Assembly (NCBI GenBank): GCA_023231475.1
Contig: JALJEE010002436.1
Location: 1-64,000 of the forward strand
Direction: 5' to 3'
Length of the DNA stretch: 64,000 bases
Origin: Seison nebaliae
Lineage: Eukaryota
Below the pieces are notes generated by a model. The model had not been told where the DNA came from. It saw only the letters and a program-made list of their open reading frames with translations, and did no database searches. This document shows, piece after piece, positions 1,338 to 64,000 of the stretch. A program made the position numbers and the translations under genes. The number at the start of each line of letters is the position of its first letter. The first letter of the stretch is position 1.

Positions 1338-3278
1338 ATGTCGAAAAACACAATGATTGAAGCGGATATGTTTGGTTTTGCTTTGATTGGATTAATCACC
1401 ACACCAATTATGAGTTTTTTTGCGTTAATTGTTTTATTGTCATGGTTCGGCATCTCTTTTGGCATTCGGAAGAAGTACGTGAAAATTCTATTGAGTATAT
1501 TCGAAGGCGCATCTGGTGTGAGTACGATAGGAAAGAATAATAGAAATTTGATGTCAAATCTGGTGAGAGAAAGCGAATCTCAATACGATTTGGAATATAC
1601 GAAACCAAAATCGTCAAAACTCGCCGATTCGACTGATAGTGGTCGATATTCGATGGGAGAGAAGACGAACAAACGTCATTCCACCAAGTCACCCAATGAG
1701 GGAGATGATAAACGGAAAGAAATTGTAAATGGAGAATCCGGTTCGAAATTTGAGAAATCTTCAAAAATTACACCCGTTTCTCTTTCAGGTTCCACTGATA
1801 ATTTGTGTCATGAAATTCAATTAACTCGTTTAGATGAGGGCAGTGATGGTAGTGAAAATGAAGAATTAGTTAAAAAGATCGATTTAGCTCATGCCATCGA
1901 TTTCTGTTGTGATGGAATTCAATCGATTGTTGACGATAATGTAACGAAACGATTTAATGCAGCAGGTCTCATTTTATTTTTCAAATATATTTTTTAAAAT
2001 TTTTTTTTAAAATTTTTCTTCATAGAATTGAGAACGTGGAATCTATTAACGAGAACGAACCATCAATACGAATATATTGGAATGGGAGTCAGTTTTCTTT
2101 GGTTCGTTGGATTCATTTTCAGATATTTAATTTTGTTACCATTCCGGTTCGTATTTTTTTTATTGTTACTTTTAATTTTCCAATTAAATTCCATAGAATG
2201 GTCATGTTTATCATCAGCGTTTCTTGGTTGATCATTACCACCACATTGATCGGTTATATTCCACACGGAAGGTTCACATTTTTAATTGAATGGAAATCGA
2301 TCGATGAATTTCTTCTTTGTTCAGATTAAAACAAAATTTCTTTTGGATCGTTAGTTTAACCATTCATCGATTGTTAGCTCGAGTCTTCACCGCTATCATC
2401 ACTCATCATAACAAGTTGGAATTGATGGATATTATTATTTAAATAGATCAATGAAATTATCATTCGTAGAGAGAATCGGGCAAAATCTGATGGAATTTGT
2501 GTGGCTAATCACACGTCACCAATCGATGTCATTATTTTGTCAACTGAAAATTGTTACGCTCTTGTCGGACAAGTTATTTGAATTATAAATTGGATATAAA
2601 TAAATGAAATTCTCATAGAAACATGGTGGTAGTTTAGGCATGTTACAACGAGCCATGTCTCGAGCGACGAATAATATTTGGTTCGAGAGATTGGAAGCAG
2701 CTGATCGACAAGCTGTAGCCAACAAATTGAGAGAACATGTGACGGGAGAGAATAATTTACCAATTCTAATCTTTCCTGAAGGAACATGTATCAATAATAC
2801 GACAGTGATGATGTTTAAGAAAGGTAGTTTCGAAATCGGTTGTACCATCTATCCCGCCACTATTAAATACGATCCGAGATTCGGTGATCCATTTTGGAAT
2901 AGTTCGAAACAATCTATGTTACAACATATTTTCGCCATGATGACCAGTTGGGCGATCGTTGTTGATGTTTATTATTTACCGCCAATGCAACGATTGTCTA
3001 CCGAGTCAGCAATCACATTTGCTAATCGAGTGAAAGAAGCGATAGCTAAAGAAGGTGGTTTCTGTTCGATTCCATGGTTTGTTTTTTTCTTTCATTCTAA
3101 TGATGATGATGATGATGATAGGGACGGAATGGTGAAACGTGTTCGTCCGAAAGAAACGTTAAAGAAAAAGATCCAAGACGATTTTTATGCTTCGTTACGT
3201 CGTCGATTAATTCCAAATGGAATTGATGATGATGATGAGGATGATGAATGTGAAAAGAGGAAAGGATCATCCATCTAA
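1338..3278 (+). CDS. Glycerol-3-phosphate acyltransferase, GPAT3/GPAT4 (AGPAT9/AGPAT6) type, 7 exons
   Basis: Spliced translation gives WNLLTRTN, VANHTSPIDVIIL (HxxxxD motif I) and LPILIFPEGTCINNTTVMMFKKGSFE; 6 short introns keep frame. The start could be ATG 1338, 1353 or 1368. GPAT3 vs GPAT4 cannot be distinguished. Confidence 0.93.
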
Positions 3279-4065
3279 ACCGTTTTCGCGACAATTCACA
3301 TCTCTCAATATACATCTGGAGGATGATCGGGCTCTCATATCAAATTCCATCTTATCAACGTCTCTAACTTTCACAAATTCAAATTAATTCCAAAATAAAT
3401 GTTAATTCTATCAACTTTACTGTGTCATATTTCCATAAATCAATGGAGCAATCGTTTTCGTCGTCATCATTCTCTAACCATCATATTTTATCTCAACGAA
3501 CTTTATTTGCTAGTTTTCTTTCGTATTTCTCCTCTTGTTCCACGTCGGGGGGATAACTATTCGTTTAACAACACATTTTCTCTTTATTTAAACACACTCT
3601 TCAAAACCAACAACAAAATCTTTTATTTTTCGGTGAAATGATTTTAATTTTGAATAAGTCTTTTAATAATAATTTAATTAATTAATAAACGATCGAATGA
3701 TTATATCAATTTCATAATTCTATTAAATCATTATCTAAACTTGTTTAGGACACCAAACAACAAGATAATATTTATTTGAGAATATTTTTTTTCAAAACTT
3801 TTTTTATTATCGATTTTTGAGTATTATCATAAACAGTTGGATAATTGTCGATATCATACAATTTTTATTATCATAAATGAAATATGTCTCGAAATTGAAT
3901 ATGTTTGTATATAAAGAAAGATAGTTATAATCAAATGTTTATTGTTACAAAATATAAAATATTATACGGAAGTTCAATTGATTTGAACAATGTCGATGAA
4001 TTTATTGAAAATAATTAATAATAGATTACTTCTTCTGTAATTGAATTTGTCAATTAATTGTAAAT

Positions 4066-5525
4066 ATGATAAGCGAATTGATATTATTGTGGAGTTTGAC
4101 TCTACTCTCATGTATCCGAATAATACGATGTCGAATAGATTGCTATGATGACGTTAATCTGATTTATGATGGACAATCTTTAGATTTCGCTCGTTCATGC
4201 AAGAACAAACATACCATCAATCTCACATTAAATTCATTACCATCAACAAATATTTTAGATAATAGAAATTTGAAAAAACTCGAAACCTTACAACTGCATT
4301 TGGTTGACAGTATAACGGAAATTCCATTTTTTCTCTTTCGATGTCAACAACAAATTCAATTTATCGTGATAAGATCGAATAAGAAAATTGAACCAGTCGG
4401 TTTCTTCCCGAATGAAATGTACAAAATTTTAATTTTAGATTTGAGTGGAATTTTCGTAGACAATGCCGTTATTCGATATTCGATGTTCAAACGACTCATC
4501 AATTTAGAGCGATTGATTATTAGAGACACGTTTGATAGAAATGTGGTTATGCTCCCACCAAAACCAACATTCTGTTTGGATAAAACAAGAAGTGACCCGT
4601 TTACTTTTCGGCAATACATATTGCATATTTTAGTTGGAAATTATGAAAGTGGAGGTGCTGCACTTGGCAATTTTATTACTTGTATGCACTACCATGGAGT
4701 ATTTGAAGTACTCGATTATCCAATTATAAATAAGTATGATTGGAATTGGTGTAAAGGAGTATTGAGACAAGAATGCTTAGATGAGAAAAATGAAAATTAT
4801 ATCACAATCGTTCCACCACCAGAAAGAATTCGATTTAACACTCAACGTATAAAGACAAGTGTACCTCAACGGAAAACTGAAATCAATCCCGTATTATTAT
4901 CTGCGCTAAACTTTAGAATGATTCAAAATATTCCACATGATCTAGGTAAGAATTATAAATTATTCATTTTTCTTTTTTAAATTCGTTTAGCCATTTGTGA
5001 TGGTTCGGGATATGTACCACCAGATTACCAAGTACAAACCACCACCACTCCTACTTCCACTACTACAACAACCATAACTACAACAACTGTAACAACTACT
5101 ACTACAACAACAACTACTACAACTACGGTCAGTATAACAACCACTTCGGCTACTACGACCACCACTGTTTCAGTTTCAACGTTAGTTATAGTTTTATTAT
5201 ATTAAATCTTTCTACATCAACTTTTAGTACAACTTATACTGGTACTACGACAACTGAAATGACAACATCTACTTCGACCACTATAACGCGCCCTTCTACA
5301 CGTCCACCATTCACTCTACCGTTCAATTTCTTCGATAATATCAAGAAATTTACACCAAAACCATTAATTGTGGATATAAACGAATATACTATCGCCCCGT
5401 CTCCAGAACCGACAGCACATCATTTAACTGCTAAACGTCGACGAAGGTTAAGTTTACTGAAAACTTGGATTATGGATGACGACGATATAGAGAAGACTCT
5501 GAATGATTTTTATACGATAAAGTAA
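4066..5525 (+). CDS. Putative secreted protein with leucine-rich-repeat-like N-terminal part and Thr-rich mucin-like stalk, 3 exons
   Basis: Signal-peptide-like MISELILLWSLTLLSCIRIIRC; LxxLxL patterns (LKKLETLQL, LINLERLII); exons about 4066-4945, 4991-5180, 5228-5525 splice in frame into a poly-Thr tract. Confidence 0.65.
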
Positions 5526-10000: not shown

Positions 10001-10411
10001 TTATTTTAGTGATGATACTTATCGGGGGAGATATTTAATGTTAACTGAGAATTGCATATGTAGTCATTTTGATGATGTAACCTTCACGAATTATTTTATG
10101 ATAATATTCATTTAATGATTCTATAATTGAAGCCAGAAAGTTTTTTTTCGTAAGAATTTCTTCTTTTCTACTATTATTCTCATTCTCTCACTTAACAGGT
10201 AGTCGTGTGTAAATATATTTTCGTTAAACAGTTCATCATAATCATCACCGTTACTTCTCATTCGATGATCATGAACATCATCGTTATATTTATGGGGGGC
10301 GAACACAACAATCGATAATTAAGTGAAAGACAATGAATAGAGAATTTATTGTGAGAATCGTATGAATCATAATGAAATCGATCTTAAATCATTCATTCAT
10401 TCTCGACTGAA

Positions 10412-10448
10412 TCATCCATCCATCCATCCATCCATCCATCCATCCATC
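10412..10448. repeat. (ATCC)n microsatellite
   Basis: About 9 tandem ATCC units read directly. Confidence 0.9.
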
Positions 10449-24309: not shown

Positions 24310-24323
24310 GTCGTCATGGCAAC
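24310..24323. promoter_or_regulatory. RFX X-box-like element (best of a cluster at 23835-24384)
   Basis: GTCGTCATGGCAAC fits the 14-bp X-box pattern GTNRCC-AT-RGYAAC with one deviation. Confidence 0.45.
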
Positions 24324-26325: not shown

Positions 26326-26984
26326 ATGTTGTCGAATGGACTAAATTTCGTGAGAAATTCTTATAAGATTCTTTCTCCTACTTCTCTCTCGTTGAATTTG
26401 ATTCGAGGAAAGAAGAAGAAAGCTGGTGGATCGACGAGGAATCAGAACACGAACAAAACAAGAGGAAAAAATCGAAGACTTTACGTAGAAGACGGAGAAT
26501 GGGTAGAACGAGATTATATGTTGGTGAAACAACTCGGTCTCAATTATTATCCAGGAGAGAATGTTAATTTGAAAGTCATTGCAAGTTCCCAACTCTCTCA
26601 TTTCTCCTTTAGGTGATATATAATCGATGGACACATTCAATTTATGCAGCCATTCCTGGTCATGTTATTATTAGTACGGAAACGTTAGATCCCAATTCCA
26701 CATCACCGGTACGGAATTATGTGGATAATATGAATCGATTATTAAACGAACAGAAAGAAATGGAACGATCGTTAATGTCTGATTTAAATGAAGAAGAAAT
26801 GACAGATAAGAACGAAATGGAAGAAAAGAAAATTAAGAGAAATTTTATCCACGTAATTCCTCCCTCCATCACCACACAACAATTGATTGCGTGGAAGAAT
26901 AGTGAACGTTGTCATGGAGAGAAATTAAAAATTGAATCAGTCAATTCGGATGATCGAAGAACATTCTTTACTTTAATAAATTGA
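26326..26984 (+). CDS. MRPL27: Mitochondrial ribosomal protein bL27m, 2 exons
   Basis: Mitochondrial-presequence-like N-terminus then KKKAGGSTRN, LVKQLGLNYYPGEN|VIYNRWTHSIYAAIPGHV, typical of bL27. Confidence 0.88.
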
Positions 26985-27623: not shown

Positions 27624-28592
27624 TTATTCGTTTAATGATTTCGCCACACCGCAACCCATTGCAATTCCCGATATCTATGAAACAAATATGAAAATTTTAA
27701 GGAATTTTAAAAATTTAAAACTTCTATTACCACCGCGATCGCACATATAACAATTAAACCGACGAATGTCTTATAATAGGTAAAGAAACCGACATAACAA
27801 TTTTTCACACAAAGTTTTTTCTACAAAAATTTCCATAAAGTTTCAACCAATCATTCGCTACTAACACTACAAGAACGACAGGAATCTGGTATGGCTTCTC
27901 CATTTTTCGTATAATCTTCTTTACCTCGAACGCCGCAACATTTCTAGAAAAGAAATTAATTTTTAAGAAAAAAATTCAAATAACAAATTTGATTTGCATT
28001 TGATCAATATCATTCCGTTTCTCCGCTTTCAACTTACTGTATCGTTTCATATTATCGCGCCATTCAGTCAAGAATTTTCCTTTCTGAAATATTGAAAATA
28101 ATAATTGATAATTAATTGTTAATAATAATGGGAACTTTCGACAGATAATATCCACAAACGCCAATAACGCCGATTGTTGCGAGAAGGAAAATGATACATA
28201 AAGCGACATACTATATGAATAAAAGAGATGAATAAAATGAAGGGATAAAATCGTTAACGGTATACATTAGACATGGTGATTTTAATGCTGTGGCACATAG
28301 AACTAATATGGCTGGTATGATCAATCCGATACCTATAGCGATGCAGAAACTGCCGAGAACAGCAAGTGCACCTTCCTCACTCTTCACTGTATCAGCGAGA
28401 GTTAAAGAGAAGTTACCAATTTTAATATCTTCCAATTCTGATTTGTGATGGACAACAATATATATACCATATCCCAGAACAACACAACCAGTAATCTGAA
28501 AAGAGAAATATTTCTAATTTTAAATGAGAACTAACGAGAAATATGGAATTAAAAATAATCATGCAAGCCTTCGAACATGTTCCTCCGCACAT
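27624..28592 (-). CDS. Tetraspanin (paralogue 1), 7 exons
   Basis: Four TM segments, N in TM1 (IIFNSIF), CCG at start of exon 5, IPDSC and further LEL cysteines, E in TM4; six phase-0 introns. Confidence 0.88.
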
Positions 28593-28716: not shown

Positions 28717-29079
28717 ATGGCGCATAATTTGAAATTTCTTTCGCGCACACTTCTCACTAAGAACAATGACGTCGAAATAACAATGCGCGTTCTAAATAAG
28801 TTTTCCTCTAATTTCTCTTTATTCAAATTTGAAAATATTTTGACGAAGAACTTTGAATAAAGAGAAAGTATTGGAAAATTATCGTCGATGGCAATATTAT
28901 GAGAAGCCGTGTAGACGTCGAATTAGATTGAATTTCGAAAAGTTAATTTCTCTCTTTATTTTATCTTAAGAATTATGTGGTATAGATGTAAGAAAATTTA
29001 TGATAGTGATATGCAAAAGAAGATTAAATTCGTCATGAAGAAACATCGACCATCACCATGGCCATGGAATGAATTCTGA
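28717..29079 (+). CDS. MRPS21: Mitochondrial ribosomal protein bS21m, 3 exons (missing from the ORF track)
   Basis: Spliced product MAHNLKFLSRTLLTKNNDVENTMRVLNKTLNKEKVLENYRRWQYYEKPCRRRIRLNFEKCKKIYDSDMQKKIKFVMKKHRPSPWPWNEF has the YYEKPCRRR and C-terminal PW signatures; divergent from tetraspanin 1 with about 125 bp between the ATGs. Confidence 0.93.
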
Positions 29080-30732: not shown

Positions 30733-31130
30733 TTTCGTCGAAGAATTTTTTCACGGGAGAAAGCTTCCAATTTAAAATATCTAATATCAAATGAAAACAA
30801 TTCTAATTCATATTAAGCCACTAGGTCTAAGAAAACTACATTTATTTCGATATTTCTTATAATAATTTAACATATCATCAATCGATTATTTGATGATTTA
30901 TTTCCTAATAATTAGGAAAAATTATGAAACTTTATTGATGGAAATTGAAGAAATGTTAAGTTTATTTCTATAAAGAATTTCTACATTTCTATCTGTTTTT
31001 GAATCATTTTAATGTTTTCCCATTATTTTTTTTCATGGAAAATTTAGAGAAGCAAGTAACTGTTTCCCGAAAAATGGTAATCTATTATTTTGGCACAAGT
31101 AGATTAGGATTCATTGAAGCAACTTCAGTT

Positions 31131-41517: not shown

Positions 41518-43248
41518 ATGAAAATCATAAAATTATCGAAAATCATCAGTCGTCGTCATTTTTTTTCGATGTCAGTCAACGAATTGAAAAGAAAGTTTAT
41601 TGAAAAGCCAAATGGAAATGATGGGGAAGTTGTTGATGAAATAAAAAAACTGAAAATTCCCAAGAGAAAAATTGCTCTGTTTATGGGATATTGTGGCGAG
41701 AATTATTTCGGATTACAACGGTTTCCTATCAATTCTTTACAAATATTCTAAAATTCCTTATCAGAAATGTGACAGATAAAGAACATCGAACCATAGAAGA
41801 TGAATTAGTTGAAGCGTTAAATGATATTGAAGCGATTACGGAAGACCAGAAAAATAATATGTTCAAAGTTCCATTTGAATTTATTTTAATTCGATAAATT
41901 ATTAATTAAATAATTCCTTCGATTTTAGATGCAATTTCAACGAGCAGCAAGAACAGATAAGAATGTCTCAGCTGGAATAAATGTCTTCTCAATTAAATTG
42001 CATTTGATAGAGAATATTGTTAATAAATTGAATGAAAGATTACCGGATCATTGTCATGTTTATGGTTCCAATTCCATCATCTAAATTATATAAAATGAAA
42101 ATAATTCCTTCTAGATATCATTCGAGCTACGAATAGTTTTGATTCGAAGAATTTTTGTAGTGGAAGAACTTATCATTATCTATTACCCACATTCGCTTTC
42201 TGTCCAATCGAACAACTAACAACCGAGTCATACCGTCTTGATGGTTTTCTAATAATGTCTGATAATAATTTCTAATTATTCAATCTTCTTCTTCTTCTTC
42301 TTCTTCTTCTTCTTCTAGAGAAACAATGGCAAATTGCTCATGATTCTTTTCAGCGATTTTTGGGAACAAATAATTATCATAATTTTACCAGCGGTAAAAA
42401 ATTCACCGATCCCTCAGCGAAGAGATATATGAAAAATTTGACAGTTCACTTCTTCAACTATTCTCTCTGACATTTTTCCATATTTTTCAGATAAGTAAAC
42501 CATTTATTGATGATAATGATTCGCTTGAGTATTGTCTCATTTCCATCACCGGACAATCATTTATGATGCATCAAATTAGAAAAATGATTGGTTTTCTTTT
42601 GAAATATTGTCATTAAATTAGAATTAGAAAATTTTTTTGATTTAGGAACAGTCATTGCCATAGTTCGAGGAATGGCATCTTCGAATTTAATTGATGAATG
42701 TTGGACGGCTGACAAGATCGATATTCCGAAAGCTCCAGGATTAGGATTGATGTTGGACAGTGTTAGATTGAACTCAAAAATTTCCTTCAATTTTATTAGT
42801 TAGATTATCGTCTCTACAATATCCGTTTCGAAAATGATGGAATTCATGAATTGATCGAATTGGAGAAATATCGTGTTAGAAACTCAAATTTCTTTTCCCC
42901 TTTCATATTTCAATTTGATATTGGTAGGAAGAAATTGATAAATTCAAAAAGAAATTCATTTATCCAAAAATTTATGAGAAGGAGAGAACGACGAAATCGT
43001 TAAATTTCTCGATTTTAGAATTAATTTAAATATTTTCAAATTTTTATAGAATGTTCAAATGGCTCCAAATTCTTCCGTGTCATTCATTTGGTACAATGTC
43101 ACCTGGTTATCCGCCTGGTGCATATATCGGTCCTGGGCGAGCACTTTACATGATAGAGAAATATGGAGAGAAAAAAGAAGAAAAAATTGTAAATATAACG
43201 AGAAAAGAGAATGATGATAAAACTGAAATAGAATCGAATAAAAAATAA
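41518..43248 (+). CDS. PUS1: tRNA pseudouridine synthase 1 (TruA family), 10 exons
   Basis: KRKIALFMGYCGENYFGLQRN, FQRAARTDKNVSA (catalytic Asp), GRTYHYLLPTFAF, HNFTSGK, GQSFMMHQIRKMIG, IPKAPGLGLML reconstructed across 9 introns. Confidence 0.95.
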
Positions 43249-43332: not shown

Positions 43333-45360
43333 ATGAATGAGGATGTGTTTCGAGAGCAAGCGACTAAATATCTCTCATCCATCTCCACCAACTACCAGGA
43401 ATTAGTGAAAGGGAAATCTGAGAATTCTATTAACGAGAAAGAATCGTCTTTATCGACTACTGATGAGAAGAGATATCACGACGACTTAGAAGAAGAAGAA
43501 GAAGATGACGAAGAGAATTCAACGAGAGAATTTAATCGTCTTTATCCGACAGATTCGTGGAAAATTAATAATTCAAATGAGAAAGAATTGATCACTGGTT
43601 TGCTCATTTCTCTTTTCATTCTCCACTAATTATTTTTAGGAGAGAAGTCGAATATCTGTAACGAATTTAATTTATTGAAAAATGACTTCTCAACAAAATG
43701 GTTTAATTTTCATGTCTTCTCAAAAGTGGATCGAAGAAAATTAATCTAATTTTATAGTCTTCGTTTCGTCCATTCGAAAAATGATTATTTCCCAATTGCC
43801 ACTCTCTCCATCATTCCTTTATTGACGAAACAACATTTCGATTTGAATTCTCGCACAGTATCAGAAGTGAATCGACAAGACGATTGGCTTCTCTCTTATG
43901 ACGATGACCGTTTTGCGATAGTGAAGAAACAACAATGTCAATTATATCAAGACTTACTGTGGAGTGTTATTAGTCATTATGAAGTGTTGGACATTAAAGT
44001 CTCAATCGCTTCATCTGATGACGCTTTCAATGTCCAACATAAATCATCAAAGACTCATACGAAAGTTAAAAATTAAAATTCCTCTAAGAAAACTAATTTT
44101 AAATTTTGAAAATTATTTAAAATTAAAAATTTTAATTAAATTAATTTAGTTTATTGATATGTTGTCGTTCAATTCATTTTTTGATGAAGTTAATTCTATT
44201 CAATTGGCCTTATTAGAGACGAGTATGGAGGAGATTTTAGAGAATTCTCATTTGAAAGAAATTTTAGAACGGAGATATTATAAACGATCGAAATCTTCAC
44301 GATCAACAGGTTCCCTTCATCAGTTCCTATTACATATAAGAAACATTTTCTTTGAGTAGAAAGTCGAACAAAGACTGATGAATTATTTTCAAAAAAACCG
44401 TTATTTCGTGGCGATCGTCAACGAATGATCAGTGTGAATGAAGTGCAAACGGATGAACAAAGAAAGAATTTCATTAGGAAACGAGTTCGGAGTGAACGTC
44501 AAACTAATTTGTCATCTGGTGAGAATAATGTGATTGAGCCATTTTTTAATTCAAATTTCCATCAAAATGATTTTATTCCGTTGAATACGTTGGAGCAAAT
44601 TAATAGCAGTAATGTCTCTAATAAATCAAATGAAAAAGAGGAGAAAGTGGGAGAATATGAGGAGGATGAAGTGGAAGAATATGACGAAGAAGAAGAACGA
44701 TTATTGAACGTGGATGTTGATCGATTGACAAATTTATTCATTAGTCGTCGAATGCAATTGGAGATGAGATATTATGAAACGAGGAAACAATCATTGGAAT
44801 TTTATGATGCCACATTATTGGATAGTAAACAATTTATTAGTGGAAAACATAAGACGAAATTAATTTTCCCATCAACAATTATCAGTCTTATCGATTATGC
44901 CACATTCGCTGAGAGGAAGAATGAAATTAATACAACTTTCAGTGAATTACATCCACAAATACATTTGAGCTTGACTAAATTGCGTTCGATTAAACGACAA
45001 TTATTCTTCATTTCTGATCGTCTATCCATCGATCTGGGAATCGTTGCATTATCATATGTTTATTTTGAACGAGTCGTCTTAAAAGGATTAGTGACGAAAT
45101 CGAATCGAAAAGCTGTCGCTGCCGCATGTCTCTTATTAGCTGGTAAATTGCACGACATTCACAAAGAAATGAAATTGAAGAAATTATTTAATGAATTTGA
45201 AGCGACTTTTCGATTGGAAAAGAAACGAATACTTTCTCTCGAATTTCCTGTTTTAGTTGCACTCGGATTCTCTTTATTTCCCAATTTATATCATCGTGAT
45301 TTCATGATACATTATCAACGATTATTATCGATGTTGCAACCGATAAAACTTTCCGAATAA
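43333..45360 (+). CDS. CABLES: CDK5 and ABL1 enzyme substrate (Cables) cyclin-like protein, 5 exons
   Basis: SGKHKTKLIFPS, HPQIHLSLTKLRSIKRQL, YVYFERVVLKG, NRKAVAAACLLLAGK, EFPVLVALGFSL match the Cables C-terminal cyclin box; N-terminal EQATKYLSSIS resembles the Cables N-terminal helix. Confidence 0.88.
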
Positions 45361-45489: not shown

Positions 45490-48400
45490 TTAAATATTCT
45501 TCTCGTATTTAGCACCGATGGAATTGAAACATTTAACGATATCAGTCGCAGAAAATTCAAATTGTACTTCAGTCGACGCTTTTTGAATTGGATAAGCCTC
45601 TTTTAAAATTCCGTCGTATCTCTTATATTTATCCAAAACTTCCTTATTTATTTTATACCATAGAACCGTTCGATCGGCTGGTTCTGAGAAATGTTTCCTC
45701 AAAAGATGATACCAATCATCGATCGTTTTCGTCATCTAAAATTTACACATCATACGAATTTTAAAAAAATGATGAAAAAATTAAGTAACATGTTTCATGG
45801 TGAATGATGCGATATTATGTTTGATATTGGTGACACTGTAAGCTGGACGGAAACTGAGATCTGACACTTTCGTCCCACTCGCCAAAACACTTTCAATCGT
45901 CGCAAAATAATCCTAAGAAAATTGAGGTTGGGAAAAATTTGAGAAATTTCAAAAGAAAAAACTAACACTCAATTCATGAAATGGACGTCCATAATGAGCT
46001 TTAATATAAGTTATCTGAGATTTCCCATATTCCATTTTCGCTCTTTGTTTCTCTTCTGCCAACGCTCCAATTTTCGTTTTACTCAAAATATCTACAAATA
46101 GTAAATGATTAAGAAAATGAGAAATACTAATATGGGAAACCGGAAAGAATTCGATAATTTGCTAAAGAAAAAATTTAAATTTAAATTTAAATAATTTTAA
46201 TAAATTAAAAGAAAATAATTAACTGAATCGAACGACATCTGGTGGTGTCTTTATACATTGTTGTGCGATATATTCAATTCGATTCATGACATTCATCACT
46301 AATTCCTTATATAATTTATCGAGATCTGATCGACGTGTATGTTTAATATCTTCGGCTAACAAGAAAAATTGCTGGAAAATTTTTAAAAATAGTTTTTATA
46401 TTTTCATTTTCATATAAGACACTAACGGACAAATCAGTCACCCAAGACAGTGCACCAATCTTCTCATCTTTCTTATATTTCGTGTTCATGATGGTGTTGA
46501 TTCCTTCGTGGAAAATTAGATCCATCTCTCGCTTATTCACAACCATCAAATTGCCTAATGTCTGTGACATGATGGTTTTTGTGATGTGAGCTTCTTCTCT
46601 TTGCACTACTTGATTCAAGACGGCATATATATGGATTGGACCACTAGGTATTGAAATTATGTGAAAATGATAATAAGACGAAATAAATTAACATTCGATC
46701 GATTGATTCGACTTGTGATGGGACGAGATGAAGTCTCGATGGGAAACCTTTGAATATTATTTGAAGATTATTTCTAGAAAGAATTATAATAATTAGAAAT
46801 TAATAAATATAATTAAAAATTCAAATAATTAATAATAACTTCATTAATTTATTTTCGTCGTCATGTAAATAATCGTAATGACATTGTGAGATGTTGTCGA
46901 TATTTCCTGGATTATTAGCAATGGCATCTTTTGCTCGATTCTTCAATGTTTCCGTGGAAACGCCAAAGAAATAATTTAAGAAGAAATTCACTTCAGCTTT
47001 GAACGACAACAAAAGTGCTGACATGATATCAGCAAAAAACTTTAAAAAAAATTATTTTTGAAATTAATTCTAAAATTGAACATCAGTGAAGAGTATACGA
47101 TTCTCTTTCGATATTATTCCCGATTCATATCGACCATTGAACATGTTGAGACGAGTTAAATAAAAATTCAAATCTTTTTGTCTATCGGATGACACACTGG
47201 CACGTGACGGGCCTTTTATGAAAAATAAAAATAAGAAACGAATTGGAATGTGAATTAAACGATTGGAATCGGGACCATCAGATCCCAAATCTTCGAGAAG
47301 AGTCTTGAAAACTTTCATGTATGAACTCAACAAACGATCATAAACATCTTGCATCTTATTCGAATATGCCTAACCATCAATGGAATTTTCTTTGATATAT
47401 ATATGGAAATTTAAAAAAAATTAAAACTTTAATAAATTTTTCAAAAATATTTTTGAAATTCTTCCTCAACCATTTGATTAATATACTGGATAATTTGATA
47501 TCATCATTCTCGTTGAATTGATGGATCCATTCTAATTTCTTCAACGATTGTTTCTCAAATTCCGAATTAGCGAGAACAAGCGAACGACTCTTATCCAATT
47601 GATAGAAAATGGCGTTGGTAGTTGAATTGAGAAAGTTGTTAAGACATTGTTCAATTTTCAACGACAACAATTTTTCAAGTCGAATATAATTCTCATAACC
47701 CTCATTGATCGATCTCATATTTTTCAATTCTGATGGATAAATTCAAAAAAAAAATGGAAAATTTGAAGGAGAATTTACCGGATGAGAAAGAATGATATTG
47801 AATGAATCGTTCGTTGAGAATATTTGAAATATTCACGAGATCTTTCATATTCTTTAATGTCATCTCTTCCGAACTTCCCAAAAGTTGACTCATTTCTTCA
47901 GGAAATGTAAAGAAATTATTCTAAAAAAAAAATTATTTAAATGAAAATTTATAAAAAATTTTCCAAACTGTTATCGTCGTCAATTCGTTATCTAATTTCT
48001 TCCGATTTTCTAACGAAACGAGTTTCGTCGAATTCTTCTCACCAATCATCTTTATCGAATCACTGATCGACTAAAGAAAAATGAAAATTTTCAAAAAAAA
48101 ATTTTTAAAGTTTCAAAAAAAATTTTTAAATTTTCAAATTTTTAACTGATAATTTATCTTCATATAATTCTAATTTATTATCAATTTCATTCGTCTCACC
48201 AATCGCTGCATCGATACTCTTCAATAATCGATTTACCGTTTGTTCACTATTCAAAATATCTTCGATATTCTCCTGTAATGGAAAAGGAATAATGAAGGAA
48301 GATAAAATGAAAATTAACAGTTTCTAATTCGTTCACTTTATTGTTAAGATTGTGAAGGAAAGTTCCCATCTTGCCGGAGAAGATGTTAGCATCGAAAATA

Positions 48401-49144
48401 TATTTCTCTAGATCCATCAAATCCATCTCACTAAATTCCTCCAATTCACTTTTCTTATTCGATTCATAATTGTCATCATTTGTCGTTCCTTTCGACTTAT
48501 CAATCGACAACACTGAAAGAAATTAATAGAAATATAATGAAAATTTTAAATTTCTCAAAATAAATTTTAGAACTTTTCGAATTTTCTTCGACATCCCAAT
48601 TAGAAAATTTGACACTCTCCTTCACATAATTCCTACAAATTACCTATGGAAAAATGTCAAAATTGAATTTGTGAATTATTCGAATAAATAAGAAGCAACT
48701 GTATGTAATCGGTAGACATATTCATTCTTATCAGTTCTCAAACAATAAAATCGATGGTCATTCCTCGTCAATTGTTGTGGTTTCAATTCGATATCAAGAA
48801 AATTCGCATCATTCGAATGCACATCTACTCCAACAACATCTGATACGTTATAAATAGTTTTTATTTCAGCCACTTTATCTTTCTCCTCTCGAAACAAAAT
48901 AATTTTCGCTTTATGTTCATCGACAGTGGAAACTTTTGATGGAAAAAATTAAAAATTTTTAAAAAATAAAATTTAAATAAATAGATGAAATTTATGGAAA
49001 ATAACTGGACAATCCTAGATATCGAGAGACTTTAGTCGCTTTAAAATTATTGTCTTTCCAATAAGGAACTAAACAGATCAATCTGTCCGTCGTTGTACTC
49101 AAGAGAGTTCTGTTAAAGTTATCTCTTCTTTGTTCTTTATTCAT
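45490..49144 (-). CDS. EXOC1: Exocyst complex component 1 (Sec3), about 17 exons
   Basis: Coiled coil (LNNKVNELETENI), RRSDLDKLY, KTPPDVVRF, GRPFHELSDYF and C-terminus LWYKINKEVLDKYKRYDGILKEAYP...FEFSATDIVKCFNSI align with Sec3 architecture; divergent sequence. Confidence 0.8.
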
Positions 49145-50929: not shown

Positions 50930-53112
50930 ATGGTCAGCCAAAAAAGACGATTATTGCGCAACAGTTGTTCGAATAATAAAAAAAAAAGTCGAATTGATTT
51001 GGAGTCGATTGCGGAAGTGATTGTGCGGGAGTGTATAAATAAAGCAATTAACTCTTTTATGATTGTCGATTCCGTAGACGATACAGATATGTCCAATTCT
51101 AATCAAACAACAACAACAACTACTACTACTACTACTACGAGTAATAAAATCGATAATATATCAGATAATGATATCATACCAATATCGACAGATGGTTCCC
51201 CAATATTTTTCATTTTCAAATTAAATAATTGTGATAGATAAAATGTTAATCGACAATGATATTAACGATAAAGAATTTAAGGATGATGATAATGATGAAG
51301 TTTTATGTGAGACGACCGACATATTTCGAGATAGATCTGATCACATCTTCCTCAGTCGATATGAGAGAGAAGTATACTTTTTTCAGTCTTCATCCTTCCT
51401 TTCTTTTAAATAGAACAATTCAAGTCGTCTCATCGCTCAACCGATAATCGGTCCGATTGGAGAGGATATTGAATATGTTACTTTACCTCATTACAACGAA
51501 GAGAATTGGAGAGAACTTCTTCAGCTTTTATCTAAACCCATTACATCCACCAAAGATTTCCAAGTTTTACTTTATAAATAAAGATAAATATATTTAATTT
51601 AAAAAAAAATTTTTTTAGCATATCATTTTGAGAGATCGAAAAATTCCACGTCATTTTGATGGGCTTCATTCCGTACTCAACGAAGAGTTTCCCAAACCGT
51701 TGAAGAAGATCTTTTTCAATCAAGTATTTCCAGGAATTGTTAACTTGGTCATTGACACACCGAAATTATTTCCAAAAGTTCCCCTTAATAATTAATCGAT
51801 TCCCATAATAAATTTATTCGTTTCAGCGTATTCCTTGTCTGAATGGCGGAAGAACTATGGCACTCACTCTCAGTCAGCGACAATGTGCTTGTTTATTGGC
51901 GAATGCATTTGTCGGAACTTTCGAAGGTGCAAAACATCGAATGTTGTCATTCAATTTCGTCAAGTTCATTTCTCATCAATTTCCAAATTTTAAAATATTT
52001 CTTCTCAAAGTTTCTTCTCCCGACGTAACGAAGAGAAGTTGAAATGTATTCTCAATTATTTCAAACGAATTATGGACGACATGCCTGAAGGTCTCGTCAC
52101 TTTTCGTCGACGTTCTTTACGTCGTTTCTTACATTGGAATGAATTGAACAATCGTTTGGATTTGAAGAGATGTAAAGTTCAAATATTCGACAAAGGAACA
52201 ATTGAGGATGATGACGATTGTCTACAAGTGGATTTCGCTAACAAATATATCGGAGGTGGCGTTCTAAATCATGGATGTGTCCAAGAAGAAATTAGATTTG
52301 TCTTGTGTCCCGAAATGATCGTTGCCAAATTATTCACACAGAAATTGGAAGACAACGATTGTCTAGTGATGATTGGTTAATTAAATTAAATTAAATTAAT
52401 TTTTAAATAATTTTCATTTAATTTTTTTTTCATTTTATTTTTCATTTTTGAAGGTTGTGAACGATTTTCCAATTATGTGGGATATGCGAGAACTTTCGAA
52501 TTTAGTGGTAATCATGAAGATAAAACTCAACGGTCAGTTTCCTTAAATATCCTCATTAAATTATTTGAAATTAATTGCATTTTCTTTCAGAGATTCATTT
52601 GGAAGAATAAAATGTCGTGTGGTGGCAATTGATGCGACGCGATTCATTCGATCACCAACACAATATTCAGAACGATTCATTTTAAGAGATTTAAATAAAT
52701 GTTTCATCGGTTTTATGAGAGATCGAACTGATGAATTATCTCTACAAAATGTACAAGCAGTTGCAACCGGCAATTGGGGTTGTGGCGCTTTCAATGGAGA
52801 TGTTTATTTAAAAGTTATTTTTTAATTTATTTAAGAAATTTTTTTTTTCAAAAAATTTCCTTTCAGATCTTATTACAATGGCTCGCATTGCTCATGATAC
52901 GACGAGATATGAATTATTACACTTTTGGGCATAAAGATGTCAAGAGGAAATTCGAAGAATTCCTCACACAACTACAAACGTTGACGGAAAAATACACAAT
53001 AAAAATGGGTCAACTATTTCGAATCGTTTGCGATTATCATCAGACGAACAGCAAAGTAGAATTATATGATTTTATTCTCCAATCTCTCGAAGATTTATAC
53101 AAAGAAAAATAA
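50930..53112 (+). CDS. PARG: Poly(ADP-ribose) glycohydrolase, 9 exons
   Basis: LQVDFANKYIGGGVLNHGCVQEEIRF (GGG-x6-8-QEE signature), ERFSNYVGY, VATGNWGCGAFNGD, CACLLANAF; start codon uncertain. Confidence 0.95.
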
Positions 53113-53150: not shown

Positions 53151-56100
53151 TTATTTCTTCTTTACTAAACCAGTTTTAGGACGATTAGCCTCATCGACAT
53201 ATTTTGTGTTTGTCGGTGTTTTCGATCGAGGAATATTCCTTTTTTTTTTTTCAAATAAAATTTCTATTAAATTTTTTGAGAAACTAAATGAAAACTTTAT
53301 AATCGCCGTTTGTTCATGTCGATCAATTCGAATTTTATTTGAAAATCGAATAATATGGAACGGTGTCATTTGTTCGACACCTTTCAATTTGTCTACGATA
53401 CTCATTTTCTTGTGTTTGATATCTGGTTGCCAAAGTACACCGGTATAAACAACCAAATCATCTACAAATAACTATAATAATTAAAATTGAATAAAATAAA
53501 ATCATCTAAAAAATTAAACTGCAAATTCTTTCACTGATCGTTTCACGTCCTTTGTATAATTCCAAATTTTCATCATTCCTACTCGTATCGGATCATCAAA
53601 TCTAATCTGAACTCGATTAATCAGATCCTCTTTGATCGGTGCCAAGAAAACATTTGAATTTATCTTCTCCTCTTTCATTCCTTGTAATTCATTCAAATCT
53701 TTAAATTCAATTCAATTCAATCAAATTATCAATTGGATAAGAAATTCAAAACTTGAAATCAAATTTTCAGGTTTCCTCATATCAGAAGCTGATACGTCAG
53801 CCATTGTTGGTTGAGCCCAAATATCTTTTATGAGAATAAAATTTCAAAAATAATTAAATAAAAGGGAATTAACTCGATTCTTTTAAATTAAGTTTAAATC
53901 CATTCTCGTCAAAGAATTCAATTCCATTCAATCCAATATAATATGGATCTCCCCATGTGGAATAGAGACGTAATTCATAAATGAATCCATTCGGAATTTT
54001 CAATGGAATACATTCAACCTGAATTTTAGAAGAATTCAAATTAAAAGGATAAATATAAGAAATTTAAAATGAGAACTTCTGATGAATTTCCTTTAATTTT
54101 CTTTGTATATTTTGTATTTTTGGTGGAGAAAAGTTGTTCAGTCAAATTCTTACGATATGCCGAATTGAGATGTAACGTTTGAAAATGATCGACTGAAACT
54201 TCTTCAAGAAAAAATTATTAAAATTTTAATTTTTAAAAGAAAAAACTAACCGACATTCGATGGTGCTCGTCGGACAATGAAACCGTTTGGAGGAGATAAT
54301 TCCTCTTGTTCCATCGTCCAAACATAAAGTGAACGTGCACCAATCCATTTAGCGTCGTCGTTACAACCATCTTCGGAGAATGTTCCGAAATAATTGAGGA
54401 TTTTGATCGCTTTGATATTTTTCATTTCATTAAACTTTATCGTAATTCGTATAGGACATGATGGTGCGACCCATTCCATAATATTATTCGACAATAAACT
54501 AATGGAAATAAAGAAAGGATTTGGAGAAATGGAATTTAAACCTTGAGAAATTTTCGGCGGCTGATATTGGTTCTATAGTAGCAACTGACATATGATTTGT
54601 TTCCGTCTCTCCGGTAATTGGAATGATTTCACCTAATTCATCGATGATTAATAAGGAAGTTAAACCAATATTGGAGATATCGATATTCTCCTTCTCATTC
54701 ACTTCAGTTCGAGTTGATAAACGGTCAGATGTATTCGGCATTTTCCAAGTATCCGTAAAGATGAGAATTAAACCGTCACAAGTGATAATTGTTTCTTTGA
54801 TGGATGATGAGATATTATCTAAATCTTTCGTGGCAACTGATGTATATGGACGAGACTCTTTTTGCTGTTGTTTTGGTATCAAAAGATCATCTTGCATACT
54901 CATCGATTGTTTTAATGATGTCAAAAGATTGATTTGTTGTTCCTCAGATGATGGTTCTTTATACTTGACAAAAATTGAATCATATTTACTCATCAATTCT
55001 AATTTATCTTCATCGATTGTATAAAGAATTGTCTAAAAAAATTTAAGAGAATTTATTTGAATTAAATTGAAACTTCAGCAAAATCATCAATCATTCCTTT
55101 ATTTTTACCTGACGCTCTTAAAATTGTTCCTTTGAAAATGAATTGATCATTCAATTTCATCGTAATGAATTTTGCTCCTCGTTCCGAATGTACTCGAGAT
55201 TTATTGTAATTCTAAAAATTGGAATTTCAAAAAAATATTTAATTGTTTATTCAATTAAATAACGAACCCATATTCGAACCATTGCCAAATGAGTTGGTTG
55301 ATGGAAATTAATTCGAATAAAATGATCGCCGTTTTTCGTGAATGGTGTCAACCACATATGCATATCATCTCTCGTCATATTAATACCATCGAGAAGGTTT
55401 GTTATGATTCGTGGATCTTCTGAATATTCTTCCAAGATGTTGATATCAGCCGGATTGGCGTCAATACTCCGAATTTTCACCGGTTTTCCATCATCAACTG
55501 AAAATATTTCAATTCCATTCAATCCAACATAATATTCGTCTCCCCAAGTTGATTTGATGTTGATTTCCAAAAAATCCCCATATGGTTCATTCGGTAAATC
55601 GAAATCCGTTACTTCTTCATCGTCATTAACTGATGGTGTATCATCGATAATTTTTGTTGATTTTACAGTATCTTCATCTTCTAAAATTCTCGACATTGAT
55701 CTTCGATGATTTCTACATTCTTTCATAATATCTTCTTCTATGGGCACATTTTTTAAACTCTGCCAAAATATAATTTAGATTCATGAAACAAATCAATAAA
55801 GAAATCAATTCGACTAACCATCGATCGACTATTGAGTTGATGTTTCTTGTTGAATGTCTCTAACGATAAGAGTGATCGATTCAACCAATCGACTAATTCT
55901 CCTTTCTTCTTATTATCATTCTTAGTTGATGATTTCATTTCTTTCTCATCTGATTTTCCTGACGAATAATAATTATTGGAATTGATAATGTTATTGGAAG
56001 GAAAGAATTTTAGAAGAGAATTGAAAGAGAATATAATGTGGGAAGAAGAAAAAGAAGAAGAAAACTTTTGTTGTTCATAATCGAATATAAATTTGTTTCT

Positions 56101-57973
56101 GTCTCCTTCAAACTGTCATTAACCGCTGACGATGGTCGATATCGAGAGAATAAATTATCGTTTATCATGTCTTCAATTTCTTTTTGAACTTCCTCCTCTG
56201 CTATTTGAATATGTTCCTCCCTGTTTCGAAGAGTTCAATTGTCGACAATGGAAACTTTAAACGAATAACTTTGGTTCGTCTGACCATGAATCGAATATTA
56301 ATGTATCTGTAACTTGGAACTTCTTTTCCTCATTCGTTTCATCTACAAGAGAAAAAAGGAGATGAATATGAATGAATAAGTAAATATTCGATATCACCAT
56401 AAAAATCGTCATAAAAAAATATTCAAAATATTTAACTGGAAATAGATTTCGTATGATAACGATTATTCCACAAATAAGAACTCATTTCGATTTTTTGGGT
56501 GGAGATAAAATTGATGAGAAACTTCACAACAGAACAGAAGTAATTTAGAAATTATTTTTTGGTCAATCAAATACAAATTGGGACTAGAAGAGAAATATAG
56601 AAAATTCGTTGTCATAACAACGGAAAGACATTAAGAGAAAGAAATTTGATAAAATAATAAGAATAAAGTCCAATATCAACAGAATAGAAATTACGACTAA
56701 ATTAAGTTCCCGGAAACAGGTAGGAGGTTGTCAATAAAATTGATTAATTGATTGATGAAAATTTACTAAACTTTTAGTGCTTAATTTTCTCACCGGAATA
56801 TTTGAGAGAGTTGGTTGGGATAAATCGACAGTTCGATTAGAAATAAAATCGAACGAATTAAATTCTTTCGACGTTTCCATCGAAGTGTTAGAGGAGGAGA
56901 TTGTCGGATTTTTTCGTGACGGTACAGGACTGATCTCAAGTTTCTTTTTATTCTCCTTTTTATTCCGCTTTCTCTCATGTGGCGAATTTTTCATGTTTCT
57001 CTTCTCGTTCAATTCGACGAATGTAAAATTATCTAAATTTGCATTTTTTTCGATTTTCACTTGACGGATGTGAAAGAAGTGTTTGTCTGATTCTTTGAGA
57101 TGTTGATAAAATTCTATGTGAAACTATAAAAGGAAAAGGTTAGAAGGAGAAACAAATAAAAGAATCAACATCTTCTTGAACAAAATTGGTGGATAGTTTA
57201 ACTGCAGAAATTTGATTCAAAACATTTAATGTTCTCTCACCAACACTGTAAATGAGGAAAAAATGAGAAACGATATTTTCACCGAATTTCAATCGTTCCC
57301 ATTTTTTCTTTCTCTTTTTAATATCTGATGTCGTGTCAGATTGATGAAGCATGAAAGAATGTTGCACAGACTGATGGTCATCATCCATCACCATCGTAGT
57401 TCCATTGAAAATCTCTTCCAAATTCAAATTTAAACTTTTCTCAGGTTCTCCTAATATTGTAGATGTCATATCATTTCCAATGTACATAATGGTTAGACGA
57501 CGTCCTTCAACATCGAACAAATTTATTCCGGAAATTTCAATTTCATTCAAGTTATCCGAATGAAATTGTAAAATTATTCCATTTAAATTCTCCCGAACAT
57601 TCACTCTTAACACAAATTTTTTAATAAAAAAAATTATAAAAGAAAAAAACTTTCCTAATTCCTCAATTTTTTCATGAAGAAGACAACAAGAAACTTGTCG
57701 CCCACTATGGATAGTTATCGTTTTATTCAATAGATCATCTTCCCCAATATCATTATCTTCGTCGCCATTCAAATGTTCGTTGAATGATTGACTGATACTC
57801 AACGAATCGTCTAAAATCCCATCGTTTGTACTTTTCAGATATAATTCATCGAACATTTTCTCCAGTTCCTTTTTATGATTCTGAAATAGGTTTCTGATTT
57901 AGTTGGAGGGGAAAATCGAAAATGAAACTTCATCATTCTCAGGATTACTCCATGTCCGCCGTTCTTTCTTCAT
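53151..57973 (-). CDS. KATNIP: Katanin-interacting ciliary protein KATNIP/KIAA0556 (repeated DUF4457-type domains), multi-exon
   Basis: Repeated motifs STWGDEYYVGLNGIEIF, DDMHMWLTPFT, MVRIWNYNKSR, STWGDPYYIGLNGIEF, MKIWNYTK and C-terminal RPKT; the N-terminal exons (56.7-58.0 kb) join in frame but are less certain. Confidence 0.88.
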
Positions 57974-59068: not shown

Positions 59069-59296
59069 ATTGAAAAAATAAGAATGATTTAATGTTCTCT
59101 CTAACTTTTCCTGACGAATAAGAATTGAGTTCGGTTGTTTATTCGAATGAAATAAGCATTTAATCGAACATTTCACGTAAATTTATTTTATGAGAAAAAT
59201 TGCAGGAAAATGTTATGAACTTTCTACTTCATCTATAACGACCTGGAAATGATATTTACGTTCTCCCCTGACAACCTAATATTCTACAAGTGATCA

Positions 59297-61305: not shown

Positions 61306-62993
61306 TTATTGTCTGATCGGGTAATTGGTGGAGCTCATATTACTACTTCCTCCATTTTCACCACCTCCGTATTGACTATCTGTAAAATGGAATAAAAATA
61401 AAATTAATAAATTTTCTTATTAAATTTCATGATCAATCAATTAATCGTTGTTATCAGGGTTAAAAAGCTCTATAATTCTAAATTCATCATTATTTCTTTC
61501 TGTGATTTGAATTATTTCTCATCATAATCAAAATTTTCAATTTCATTAATAAATCAAATTAAATCTACTAACTATATGGTGTCATTCTGCTTGTGTATGA
61601 ATTGTTTCGGAAAGCGCCACCTCCACCACTTCCACCAGTTGATGCTCCTGAAGCCCCGTTACTTCCATTTCCACTTCCACCTGAATATGTGTAATCATAA
61701 GCATTATTATAACTATCATCTAAAATGAGGAGAAATGATAAAAGAAATCAAATGGAAAATATTACAAACATCGATAATTATTTCTGTGATAACCCGAATA
61801 ATTTGAATTGCGTCCTCCACCGACACCACCTGATCCACTTCCACCACCACCGCCTCCCATCGCGTTATTATTATTCTGATAATCACAATGGAAATTACCA
61901 CCACGATAACCGCCAGTACTTTCATTGAATGAATTAGCACTTCGTGCTTGTCCTTGATTGTAACTGTCGTAACCATAAGGTGGTGGTCCGCCACTTGGCA
62001 TTTGATTGTCGTATGATGCATAATGTCCTTCATTCATCGGATAATTCCTTCCCATATTATTATTACGTCCTTGCATTCCCCCTCCATATGGTGGCATATT
62101 TCCACCAAAACTTCTTTCATTATGTCGACCATTCTGACCGGGAGCGGCCATTTTACGGAAACGATTATATGGCATATCTTTCGGAATGGCTTTCTTCACA
62201 TCCAAATCGATACTTTTAATTCGATGATGTTTTTCTAAAATAATCTTATCTACTGGATCATAATCGCTATATGTGACAAATCCAAATCCTCGAGGTTTTC
62301 TCGTCTCTTTATCCGTCATCAAAACACAATCCAAAATTTCTCCATATTGATTGAAATATTGTCGAAGATCCTCCTCACTGATACCTTCCTTTATTCCTCC
62401 AATGAACAATTTCTTCACTGTCATTTGTACTTCAGGTCGACCACTCTCTTCACGTGGCATAGCTCGTTTCGGTTCCACTTCTCTCCCATCGATGATATGT
62501 GGACGACTCTTCATCAAAGCATCAACCATCGTTGATCGAGAATATGTGACAAATCCGAATCCTCTAGATCGTTTCGTATGACTATCCTTCATTACAACAC
62601 AATCTACCAAACTTCCATATTTCTCGAAATGACTTCTCAATGTATTGTCGTCAGTGCGGAAGTTCAATCCTCCAATGAACACTTTACGAAATTGTTCTGG
62701 TTCATCCTGAGAAGAAATCGATTAAAATTAATTTTAAATTTAATACAAACCATCTCTTCCGATTTCCTCAAATCATTACTATTATTATTGTTGTGGTTGG
62801 GATTGGCAACGACGACTGGATGGACAACGGGATTGTCGTTCGGCATATTGCTGCCGGAAACATCTAACGAGTTGTTCATATTCGCTTCGTTCTTAACTTC
62901 CATATTCGACATATTATTTCGTTCTACTGTTGGTAAGTTTGAATATTCTCCCTCGCCCTGAATATTATTATTAATATTATCTCCTGAAATCAT
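61306..62993 (-). CDS. hnRNP A/B family protein (A1/A2B1/A3-like; two RRMs plus Gly/Tyr/Asn-rich tail), 4 coding exons
   Basis: DEPEQFRKVFIGGL, KRSRGFGFVTY, RPHIIDGREVEPKRA, VKKLFIGGI, RGFGFVTYSDYDPVDKI; three GTT introns. Confidence 0.95.
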
Positions 62994-63848
62994 CTCTTTT
63001 CAACTTATTTGCTGCGTATCTATAAATTCTTCTCCTTCTACGATCTATATATAATATATCTAATATACGATTACTCGATCTCTTCATTATTCAGAAAATA
63101 CACCTATCATCTCTCTCCCCTCTCCCACAATGTATTATTTATGTGCATTCTTCATTACATGTAGGTACACGATGATGCACCCTTCACCAAACAAACATAT
63201 CAACTTCGGTACAGTTGTACGTGGACAAAAAAAAACATTCCATCAATCCAACTTGTACATGCGAAATTTGATTGGGACAGCGGGAAAAAAGAGAAAGAAA
63301 CAATATATTTCATATGTACCTTCAATACTAATGTATGTACATTCACTTTCTACAACGAGATATTCATGCGAGATATTCAAACAAGCCCTCTCATATCTTA
63401 TCTTATTCGACGTACATGTGTTCTACATTCGCTAATTCGATCACATCGACATCTCTCTCAAACACAAATGAAAATAGGCAGACACAATCAGAAATGAGTA
63501 CAAGATATAACTAAAGTAATAGAGGACAAGAAAATGTTATTTAATGTATCGTGATGGATCGTCCAATAAACAACACGAGTATTCATGGATGAATTTCCAT
63601 TTAAAAATATTTGCAGAATGAGAAAATATAATTTTTGCTAAATAATCAAATTCAAATGTCAAGCTTCACATTGTAATTTGCATGTTATTCGAATCAATTC
63701 ATTTTATTCTCTAATAAACGTTTTTTACCTTTCTTTAAGTATAAAAAATAAAAATGAACATTTAAATTTTTGGCTTTTAATCGAAAATTCAAAAATTTTA
63801 AATTTCTCCATACACAACTTTACATAATATTCTAAAATTTTTTACGGT

Positions 63849-64000
63849 ATGGCATCGAAGAAGATTCGCAGTGAATATAATTTGAATGAATTGAATAAAA
63901 TGGCGAATGAAGTTTGAATTGATCGGATCCGTTCTCCTATAGTGGAATTTGCAGGAAGTTCAATGTTCATTTGAAGGATATGATATTACAGCTGACGATC
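63849..64000 (+). CDS. BCCIP: 5' part of probable BCCIP (BRCA2/CDKN1A-interacting protein, Bcp1 family), truncated by window end
   Basis: MASKKIRSEYNLNELNKMANE joined by a 43-nt GTTTGA...CAG intron (63912-63954) to EVQCSFEGYDITADD, resembling the BCCIP EEVNxEFEAYxxxDxD motif; only 36 codons visible. Confidence 0.55.

Follow-up and report, generated by a model that had tools for sequence, protein, structure and literature searches.

Donor sites of the predicted introns

The window analyzed here is a stretch of 64,000 nucleotides (nt) from Seison nebaliae (assembly GCA_023231475.1, contig JALJEE010002436.1, positions 1 to 64,000), a tiny marine animal that belongs to Rotifera/Syndermata, lives epizoically and has a genome of ~46 Mb (PMC8351084). 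It encompasses 12 genes that were picked because they contain introns (Table 1), along with several single-exon open reading frames (ORFs). The 81 introns predicted in these genes show a strongly skewed choice of the donor (5' splice) site: 77 start with GTT, 2 with GTC, 2 with GTA and none with GTG, such that a purine in position +3, required by the GTRAGT donors of the major (U2) type, is present in only 2 of the 81. The evidence base consists of the DNA, public protein models and homology, and the introns are therefore predicted. All of them are bounded by GT and AG, as demanded by the placement tools (GT or GC plus AG) except in the exact mapping of public models, and all 12 genes read open across every intron.

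Table 1. Genes and other features of the window, with window coordinates of the features and of the intron donors
Feature	Coordinates	Strand	Introns (donor positions)	Basis and remarks
GPAT3/4	1353..3278	+	7: 6 GTT, 1 GTC (1789, 1966, 2147, 2272, 2415, 2573, 3077; GTC at 1966, exon end CAG)	P0002 maps exactly
BCAS2/SPF27	5719-7086	+	single exon	Pfam domain, residues 8-209
Open frame	13978-18924	+		1649 codons
Open frame	19436-21658	-		741 codons
MRPL27	26326..26984	+	1 GTT (26563-26612)	Pfam Ribosomal_L27, frame; hand-placed
Tetraspanin a	27624..28592	-	6 GTT, phase 0 (28535, 28258, 28135, 27984, 27865, 27721)	Weak Pfam Tetraspanin; hand-placed
MRPS21	28717..29079	+	2 GTT (28800, 28942)	Pfam Ribosomal_S21 below cut-off, frame; hand-placed
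PDHX-like	29262..30732	-	2 GTT (30641, 30417)	Pfam Biotin_lipoyl, E3_binding, 2-oxoacid_dh; frame
Tetraspanin b	31085..32109	-	6 GTT (32052, 31762, 31634, 31492, 31370, 31225)	As tetraspanin a
Open frame	34080-35396	-		439 codons
PUS1	41518..43248	+	9 GTT (41721, 41868, 42065, 42244, 42444, 42591, 42762, 42875, 42999)	One exon matches human PUS1 structures; frame
CABLES-like	43333..45360	+	4 GTT (43598, 43701, 44065, 44310)	Pfam Cyclin_N, frame
EXOC1 (Sec3)	45490..49144	-	17: 16 GTT, 1 GTA (47778, exon end CCG)	P0194 maps; Pfam Sec3
PARG	51059..53112	+	8: 6 GTT, GTA (51372), GTC (52533)	Pfam PARG_cat_N/C, frame; hand-placed; start codon uncertain
KATNIP (KIAA0556)	53151..57973	-	16 GTT	P0121 maps exactly
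Tctex-1-domain open frame	58196-59182	-		Not part of the P0121 model
hnRNP A/B-type	61306..62993	-	3 GTT (62750, 61769, 61572)	Pfam RRM_1 x2, frame
SNORD36-like box C/D snoRNA	61447..61531	-		Rfam, 35.1 bits (gathering score 30)

The initial annotation of this DNA had reported 59 GTT, 2 GTC, 2 GTA and 0 GTG donors among 63 introns in 11 genes; re-placement yielded 65 introns, with 61 GTT, 2 GTC, 2 GTA and 0 GTG donors. Its claims that all 12 tetraspanin introns and all nine PUS1 introns start with GTT were reproduced, the nine PUS1 hexamers being identical to those listed. KATNIP, which was outside that list, contributes 16 GTT donors out of 16 and lifts the total to 77 of 81.

The window has a G+C content of 31%, and T follows 2241 of its 5490 GT sites (41%), whereas T makes up 49% of the interiors of the 81 introns. 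Against either background, the excess of T at +3 is highly significant (binomial test, p = 2e-25 for the window and p = 1e-19 for the interiors). The bias is real and position-specific, given that T accounts for 95% of the donors at +3 compared to 33% at +4 and 49% in the interiors. In 59 of the 77 GTT introns, neither GTA nor GTG provides a donor within 30 nt that would preserve the frame, and 44 are compatible with GTT alone; in the worst case, when all 18 GTT introns with an in-frame GTA or GTG option are counted as wrong, 59 of the 81 are left (p = 8e-6). Inside the 12 genes, the predicted introns use 77 of the 373 GTT sites, compared to 2 of 148 GTA, 2 of 225 GTC and 0 of 204 GTG sites, and 17 GTRAG sites are passed over. 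Thus, the preference for T at +3 in this window is confirmed at the DNA level.

Three of the four exceptional donors have G at -1, compared to 21 of the 77 GTT donors (p = 0.08); the GTC donor of PARG reads G/GTCAGT. A further likely GTA donor, TAG/GTAAGA, is located at 4946-4990 (+), outside the 81, in a gene that contains a Thr-rich tract and was assigned no name.

Several approaches that differ in their dependence on prior knowledge were used to place the introns. A dynamic-programming gene parser, for which GT and AG were mandatory but the bases at donor positions +3 to +6 had no effect on the score, predicted 113 introns in 18 regions, namely, 72 GTT, 16 GTC, 13 GTG and 12 GTA (p = 9e-4 for 72/113); these counts include the output at 8400-13450 and 23600-25450, which seemed spurious, as well as four more unnamed genes, all of which are excluded from the 81. 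Within the 12 named genes, the uncorrected output contains 62 GTT introns out of 86 (hand count; p = 8e-6). Under the public protein models, the non-GTT calls of the parser at 2564, 47275 and 46422 move to GTT sites, those at 54457 and 58207 are not introns, and those at 1966 (GTC) and 47778 (GTA) are upheld, so that most of these calls look like errors. In PUS1, the parser recovered eight of the nine donors and picked the competing GTG at 42760 in place of 42762, the donor of a 38-nt intron.

The public S. nebaliae proteins P0002, P0121 and P0194 match exons of the window at 100%, 100% and 99%, respectively, and are all encoded on one 331-kb contig. When these proteins were mapped onto the window without any restriction on the intron ends, each of the 40 junctions had one GT-AG solution, with 38 GTT, 1 GTC and 1 GTA donors (p = 3e-10 at 49% T); if the predictor behind these models was trained, the GTT motif could be self-reinforced. 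A spliced aligner without a +3 term, run with profiles built from homologs excluding Seison, made 16 calls, 14 of them GTT. In GPAT3/4, there were 5 GTT and 2 GTC calls that reproduce the six introns of the conserved part, whereas the GTC at 1642, in an unconserved region, is absent from the public model; in KATNIP, all nine calls were GTT, with eight donors coinciding with those of the public model and one donor and two acceptors differing.

The other 41 introns, in nine genes, were placed by frame, paralog comparison and family motifs, which is not blind to the hypothesis; they include 39 GTT, 1 GTA and 1 GTC donors, and in 12 of them, the non-GTT call of the parser was shifted to a GTT site. 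The tetraspanin paralogs, with MRPS21 and PDHX in between, share all six phase-0 intron positions. The 193-nt GTT intron 61572-61380 of the hnRNP A/B-type gene harbors a SNORD36-like small nucleolar RNA (snoRNA) with a guide stretch that fits the family, which provides side support for this intron being real. The Rfam search detected no spliceosomal snRNA in the 64-kb window. The first intron of the PDHX-like gene lies within an unconserved leader, and the 5' introns of the CABLES-like gene (presumably CABLES, the name given in the initial annotation) lie in weakly conserved sequence. Two DNA contigs (X2 and X5) agree with the window over 26000-39300, with long pieces free of differences, so that an assembly error within this segment appears unlikely; these DNA-like contigs contain no intron-like joints over the same segment, which is uninformative with respect to splicing.

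Beyond +3, which carries 1.6 bits of information, the donors are degenerate, as the initial annotation had it: no other free donor position exceeds 0.5 bits, and its estimate of G at +5 in about 16 of 63 donors became 16 of 65 upon re-count. A faint residual signal of the ordinary register is detectable across the set of 81 introns, with +5 G in 19 (against 5%; p = 1e-8), -1 G in 24 (p = 0.009), -2 A in 38 (p = 0.016) and -3 C in 21, and +5 G is associated with +6 T (p = 0.017). The most common hexamer is GTTAAT (9/81), followed by GTTAGT (7/81), that is, the canonical hexamer altered at +3 alone. In contrast to T, C is depleted at +3 (2/81 vs 12% in introns, p = 0.002), whereas T at +4 (27/81, 33%) and +6 (35/81, 43%) is at or below background. 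C at +6 (20/81, p = 0.001 uncorrected) occurs in 19 of the 62 donors without +5 G and in 1 of the 19 with it; these could possibly represent a second sub-class of donors or noise, given that C reaches 18 at +18.

The introns are short, with a median length of 49 nt and 72 of the 81 not exceeding 62 nt, and donor strength is not associated with length among them. The acceptors are TAG (48), CAG (19) and AAG (14), the last being common, and none of six branch-point patterns scanned in the 81 introns exceeded shuffled sequences. Minor (U12-type) introns have GTATCC donors, and this hexamer is absent from the 81. The Seison introns are probably ordinary introns of the major spliceosome, about 49 nt long and defined across the intron.

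Bdelloid-like loci and the age of the introns

As a control, a metagenomic scan with a bdelloid KATNIP protein yielded 80 loci, five of which (L041, L057, L059, L067 and L080; related loci of a single gene) group with bdelloids, whereas no monogonont or acanthocephalan loci were identified among the 80. The best match of four of the five is the bdelloid Didymodactylos, and together with the fifth they group with it at 100/100 support; Seison forms a long branch and is left unplaced in this tree. In these loci, the same +3-blind aligner made 36 calls, namely, 34 GTA, 1 GTC, 1 GC and no GTT. When two calls that repeated an already counted donor and the two non-GTA calls, contradicted by another profile, were removed, 32 donors in 11 positions were left, all GTA, in introns of 45-59 nt with interiors of 43% A and 40% T. 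The difference between Seison and the 11 bdelloid-like positions is highly significant (Fisher test, p = 3e-11).

The bdelloid-like donors resemble those of Seison in belonging to AT-rich introns of 45-59 nt, in the weak exonic side and in two common positions, but differ from them in having +3 A in 32 of 32 and +5 G in 21 of the 36 calls, with a donor information of 10.4 bits compared to 7.6 bits in Seison (from few, related loci). Hence AT-richness is insufficient to account for the bias, as the initial annotation maintained, whereas its suggestion of length-based intron definition fails as the sole cause because bdelloid-like introns are equally short and yet use GTA. In the bdelloid-like calls, exonic -1 G is nearly absent (2/36), and GTATGT is frequent. 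Two other eukaryotic loci from the scan, L061 and L070 (19.8 kb, 28% GC), have several uncurated GTT donor calls (4 of 6 in L070, with one profile).

Two KATNIP intron positions are common to Seison, where the donors are GTT, and to the bdelloid-like loci, where they are GTA; two other Seison positions recur in protist loci, for a total of 4 shared positions out of 9. These shared positions indicate that the introns are old and that their +3 base was changed in the Seison lineage. A lineage-specific switch at +3 is thus almost certain.

Pairing with U1 and competing explanations

Donor position +3 is located opposite position 6 of the U1 small nuclear RNA (snRNA), a pseudouridine. We compared the actual donors with 869 decoys in a fixed-register energy model of U1 pairing with pseudouridine left out. 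For canonical U1, the energy is -1.44 kcal/mol for the Seison donors and -1.20 for the decoys (area under the receiver operating characteristic curve, AUC, of 0.50), compared to -3.13 for the bdelloid-like donors, 32 of 32 of which canonical U1 binds in this model. A U1 swapped at +3 yields -2.62 kcal/mol on the Seison donors, with an AUC of 0.71. The proposal in the initial annotation that this lineage recognizes donors differently is supported in part, in that the bias is real and specific to +3 and canonical U1 is powerless to discriminate in this model; definition by length alone is excluded.

Our best guess at the cause is a U1 with A opposite donor +3, that is, a 5' arm with ACUAAC replacing ACUUAC, because U is favored and C is avoided at +3, because the U6 ACAGA is highly conserved, and because Entamoeba changed U1 and not U6. 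An A partner would fit better than a G partner, given that +3 U is chosen and +3 C is depleted. The donor core would then consist of three bases, GT plus a U:A pair at +3, with recognition beyond this core left to proteins and intron length; the rare GTA and GTC donors would survive via better pairing elsewhere, and the human spliceosome would read such a minimal GUU donor poorly. We consider the chances that an altered U1 is the cause to be about evenly balanced. The broader scenario, in which the ancestral introns of an intron-rich animal were converted genome-wide from +3 A to U while U1 changed alongside them, is conceivable, although we lean slightly against it.

Several observations weigh against an altered U1. 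The rise in AUC upon the +3 swap follows from the bias by construction; a U1 swapped at both +3 and +4 scores equally well (AUC 0.75), so that no single U1 is singled out; and even the +3-swapped U1 pairs with only ~5 of 9 donor positions. Furthermore, T at +6 does not exceed background, and A at +4 is borderline. Micromonas and Thecamonas have no compensating U1. In Saccharomycotina, U1, whose position 5 is opposite donor +4, and U6 are invariant across the switches at +4, which track METTL16 and SNRNP27K (PMC10581693).

The main rival, given that the yeast +4 switches came without a change in snRNAs, is that the snRNAs are canonical and that an altered or lost protein (U1C, LUC7, SNRNP27, METTL16, SNU23 or PRP8) favors +3 U, acting either at U1 binding or at the hand-over to U6. 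Apart from the protein-linked yeast switches (PMC10581693), this explanation is compatible with the shift in +3 choice in snrp-27 mutants of Caenorhabditis elegans (PMC11732430), with the ~35% of BUSCO metazoan genes missing in Seison (PMC8351084) and with the very weak pairing of Seison donors beyond GTT. Nevertheless, we consider it rather unlikely, considering that Entamoeba, a +3 lineage in which U1 has been examined, changed U1 (10.1101/2022.06.08.495308) and that under canonical U1, the Seison donors fare no better than decoys.

A change in or dominance of U6, with U1 weakened or lost, is improbable. In this case, +3 U would form a wobble pair with G44 of U6, which contacts +3 weakly (PMC11732430), or ACAGAGA would have become ACAAAGA. 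GUUUGU could pair better with canonical ACAGA (10.1101/2022.06.08.495308), U1-independent splicing exists (PMC11732430), and +5 G is the strongest residual donor signal. However, a G partner should tolerate or even favor +3 C, which is depleted; T is not elevated at +4 or +6; and ACAGA is unchanged across 240 fungal genomes (PMC10581693).

A shifted or bulged register, in which canonical U1 pairs one base off with +3 U standing in for +2 U, is very improbable. It would explain +3 U without any change in snRNA and agrees with GTTAAT being the most common hexamer and with a mild enrichment of -1 A (p = 0.028), but the diagnostic +6 G is found in 3 of the 81 donors (background 5%, p = 0.78), with G found at +5 instead, and +5 A (26/81) equals background. 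In free positions, the excess over expectation is also greater for the standard register (3.01 vs 2.41) than for the shifted alternative (2.86 vs 2.56). Donors of the shifted-register type were reportedly described by Roca and Krainer in 2009; they start with GUU as in Seison, but the rest of the motif is one base deeper, with A at +4/+5 and G at +6, whereas in Seison G is at +5.

The possibility that recognition did not change, position +3 being free and filled with T through base composition or mutation bias, or that the pattern is an artifact of gene prediction, is highly unlikely. The intron interiors are indeed richer in T in Seison than in bdelloid-like loci (49% vs 40%), the case is built on DNA, and the pipeline behind the public models may have learned the motif; against this stand the contrast between +3 and both +4 and the interiors, the lack of an in-frame GTR option in 59 of the 77 GTT introns, the differential usage of GTT, GTA and GTG sites, and the output of the same blind aligner, which finds GTA in bdelloid-like loci and GTT in Seison. 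Finally, an origin of the introns as copies of a GTT-starting mobile element (introner) is extremely unlikely: although their all-against-all similarity is somewhat elevated (mean of 17.75 vs 16.1-16.4 in shuffles; 99th percentile of 35 vs 29-31), the top similarity of 46 is within the shuffle range (41-46), terminal inverted repeats and target duplications are absent from Seison introns, 4 of the 9 KATNIP positions are common to bdelloid-like or protist loci, and the tetraspanin paralogs have six positions in common. Thus, the last three candidates fail on +6 G, on the +3 numbers, and on similarity and position, respectively.

Known systems and other features of the window

Donors with +3 U that are matched by a compensatory U1 are a known type, already described in Entamoeba, where GUUUGU donors, which make up 88-90% of the total in an intron-poor genome, are accompanied by a U1 with ACAAAC, a canonical U6 and a divergent U1C (Roy and Bowser, 10.1101/2022.06.08.495308). 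Seison is similar in its near-universal +3 U, GT-AG introns and AT-rich genome. It departs from the Entamoeba type in positions +4 to +6 and in intron density: +3 alone is fixed, with GTTTGT in 3 of the 81 donors and +5 G in 23%, whereas Entamoeba fixes +4 U, +5 G and +6 U, and the 12 intron-containing genes analyzed in this animal, with 81 introns between them, contrast with the paucity of introns in Entamoeba. Saccharomycotina share with Seison a lineage-wide change at one donor position, which is +4 (A/U) in the former and +3 in the latter (PMC10581693). The splice-site code is also rewired in another animal lineage, Fritillaria borealis, but 95% of its introns escape GT/AG, with changes in U2AF and N6-methyladenosine implicated (PMC13326754), whereas Seison keeps GT-AG.

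The literature search, with subscription journals and at least one Syndermata annotation paper outside its coverage, yielded no study of splice sites or snRNAs in Seison and no report of GTT donors in any animal. The text of PMC8351084 does not mention snRNA, and its two supplements contain none of the terms splice, snRNA and intron; Seison is not named in the main texts of PMC11347168 and PMC10639083.

The GURAGU consensus is regarded as nearly fixed in animals. In the 'coevolution' model as described by Roy and Bowser (10.1101/2022.06.08.495308), intron loss comes first, after which signals and machinery drift jointly. Seison retains many old introns, and yet one donor position appears to have flipped almost wholly, while that of a close relative has not. 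If the broader scenario of a genome-wide conversion with an altered U1 is true, it would be the first animal case that the literature search could find, and donor-U1 co-evolution would be possible without prior massive intron loss. Two questions are raised, namely, whether U1, U6 or a protein is behind the +3 preference, and how an intron-rich genome changes its splice code. In practical terms, the Seison lineage would be misinterpreted by gene finders and minigene tests that were trained with data from other animals.

Among the remaining features of the window, the Pfam scan gave no match for three long open frames of 439 to 1649 codons (Table 1), and the Tctex-1-domain frame is located just upstream of KATNIP. 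The single-exon BCAS2/SPF27 gene encodes a splicing factor of the Prp19 complex, the C-terminal part of which is a repetitive Glu/Lys-rich tail of ~250 residues.

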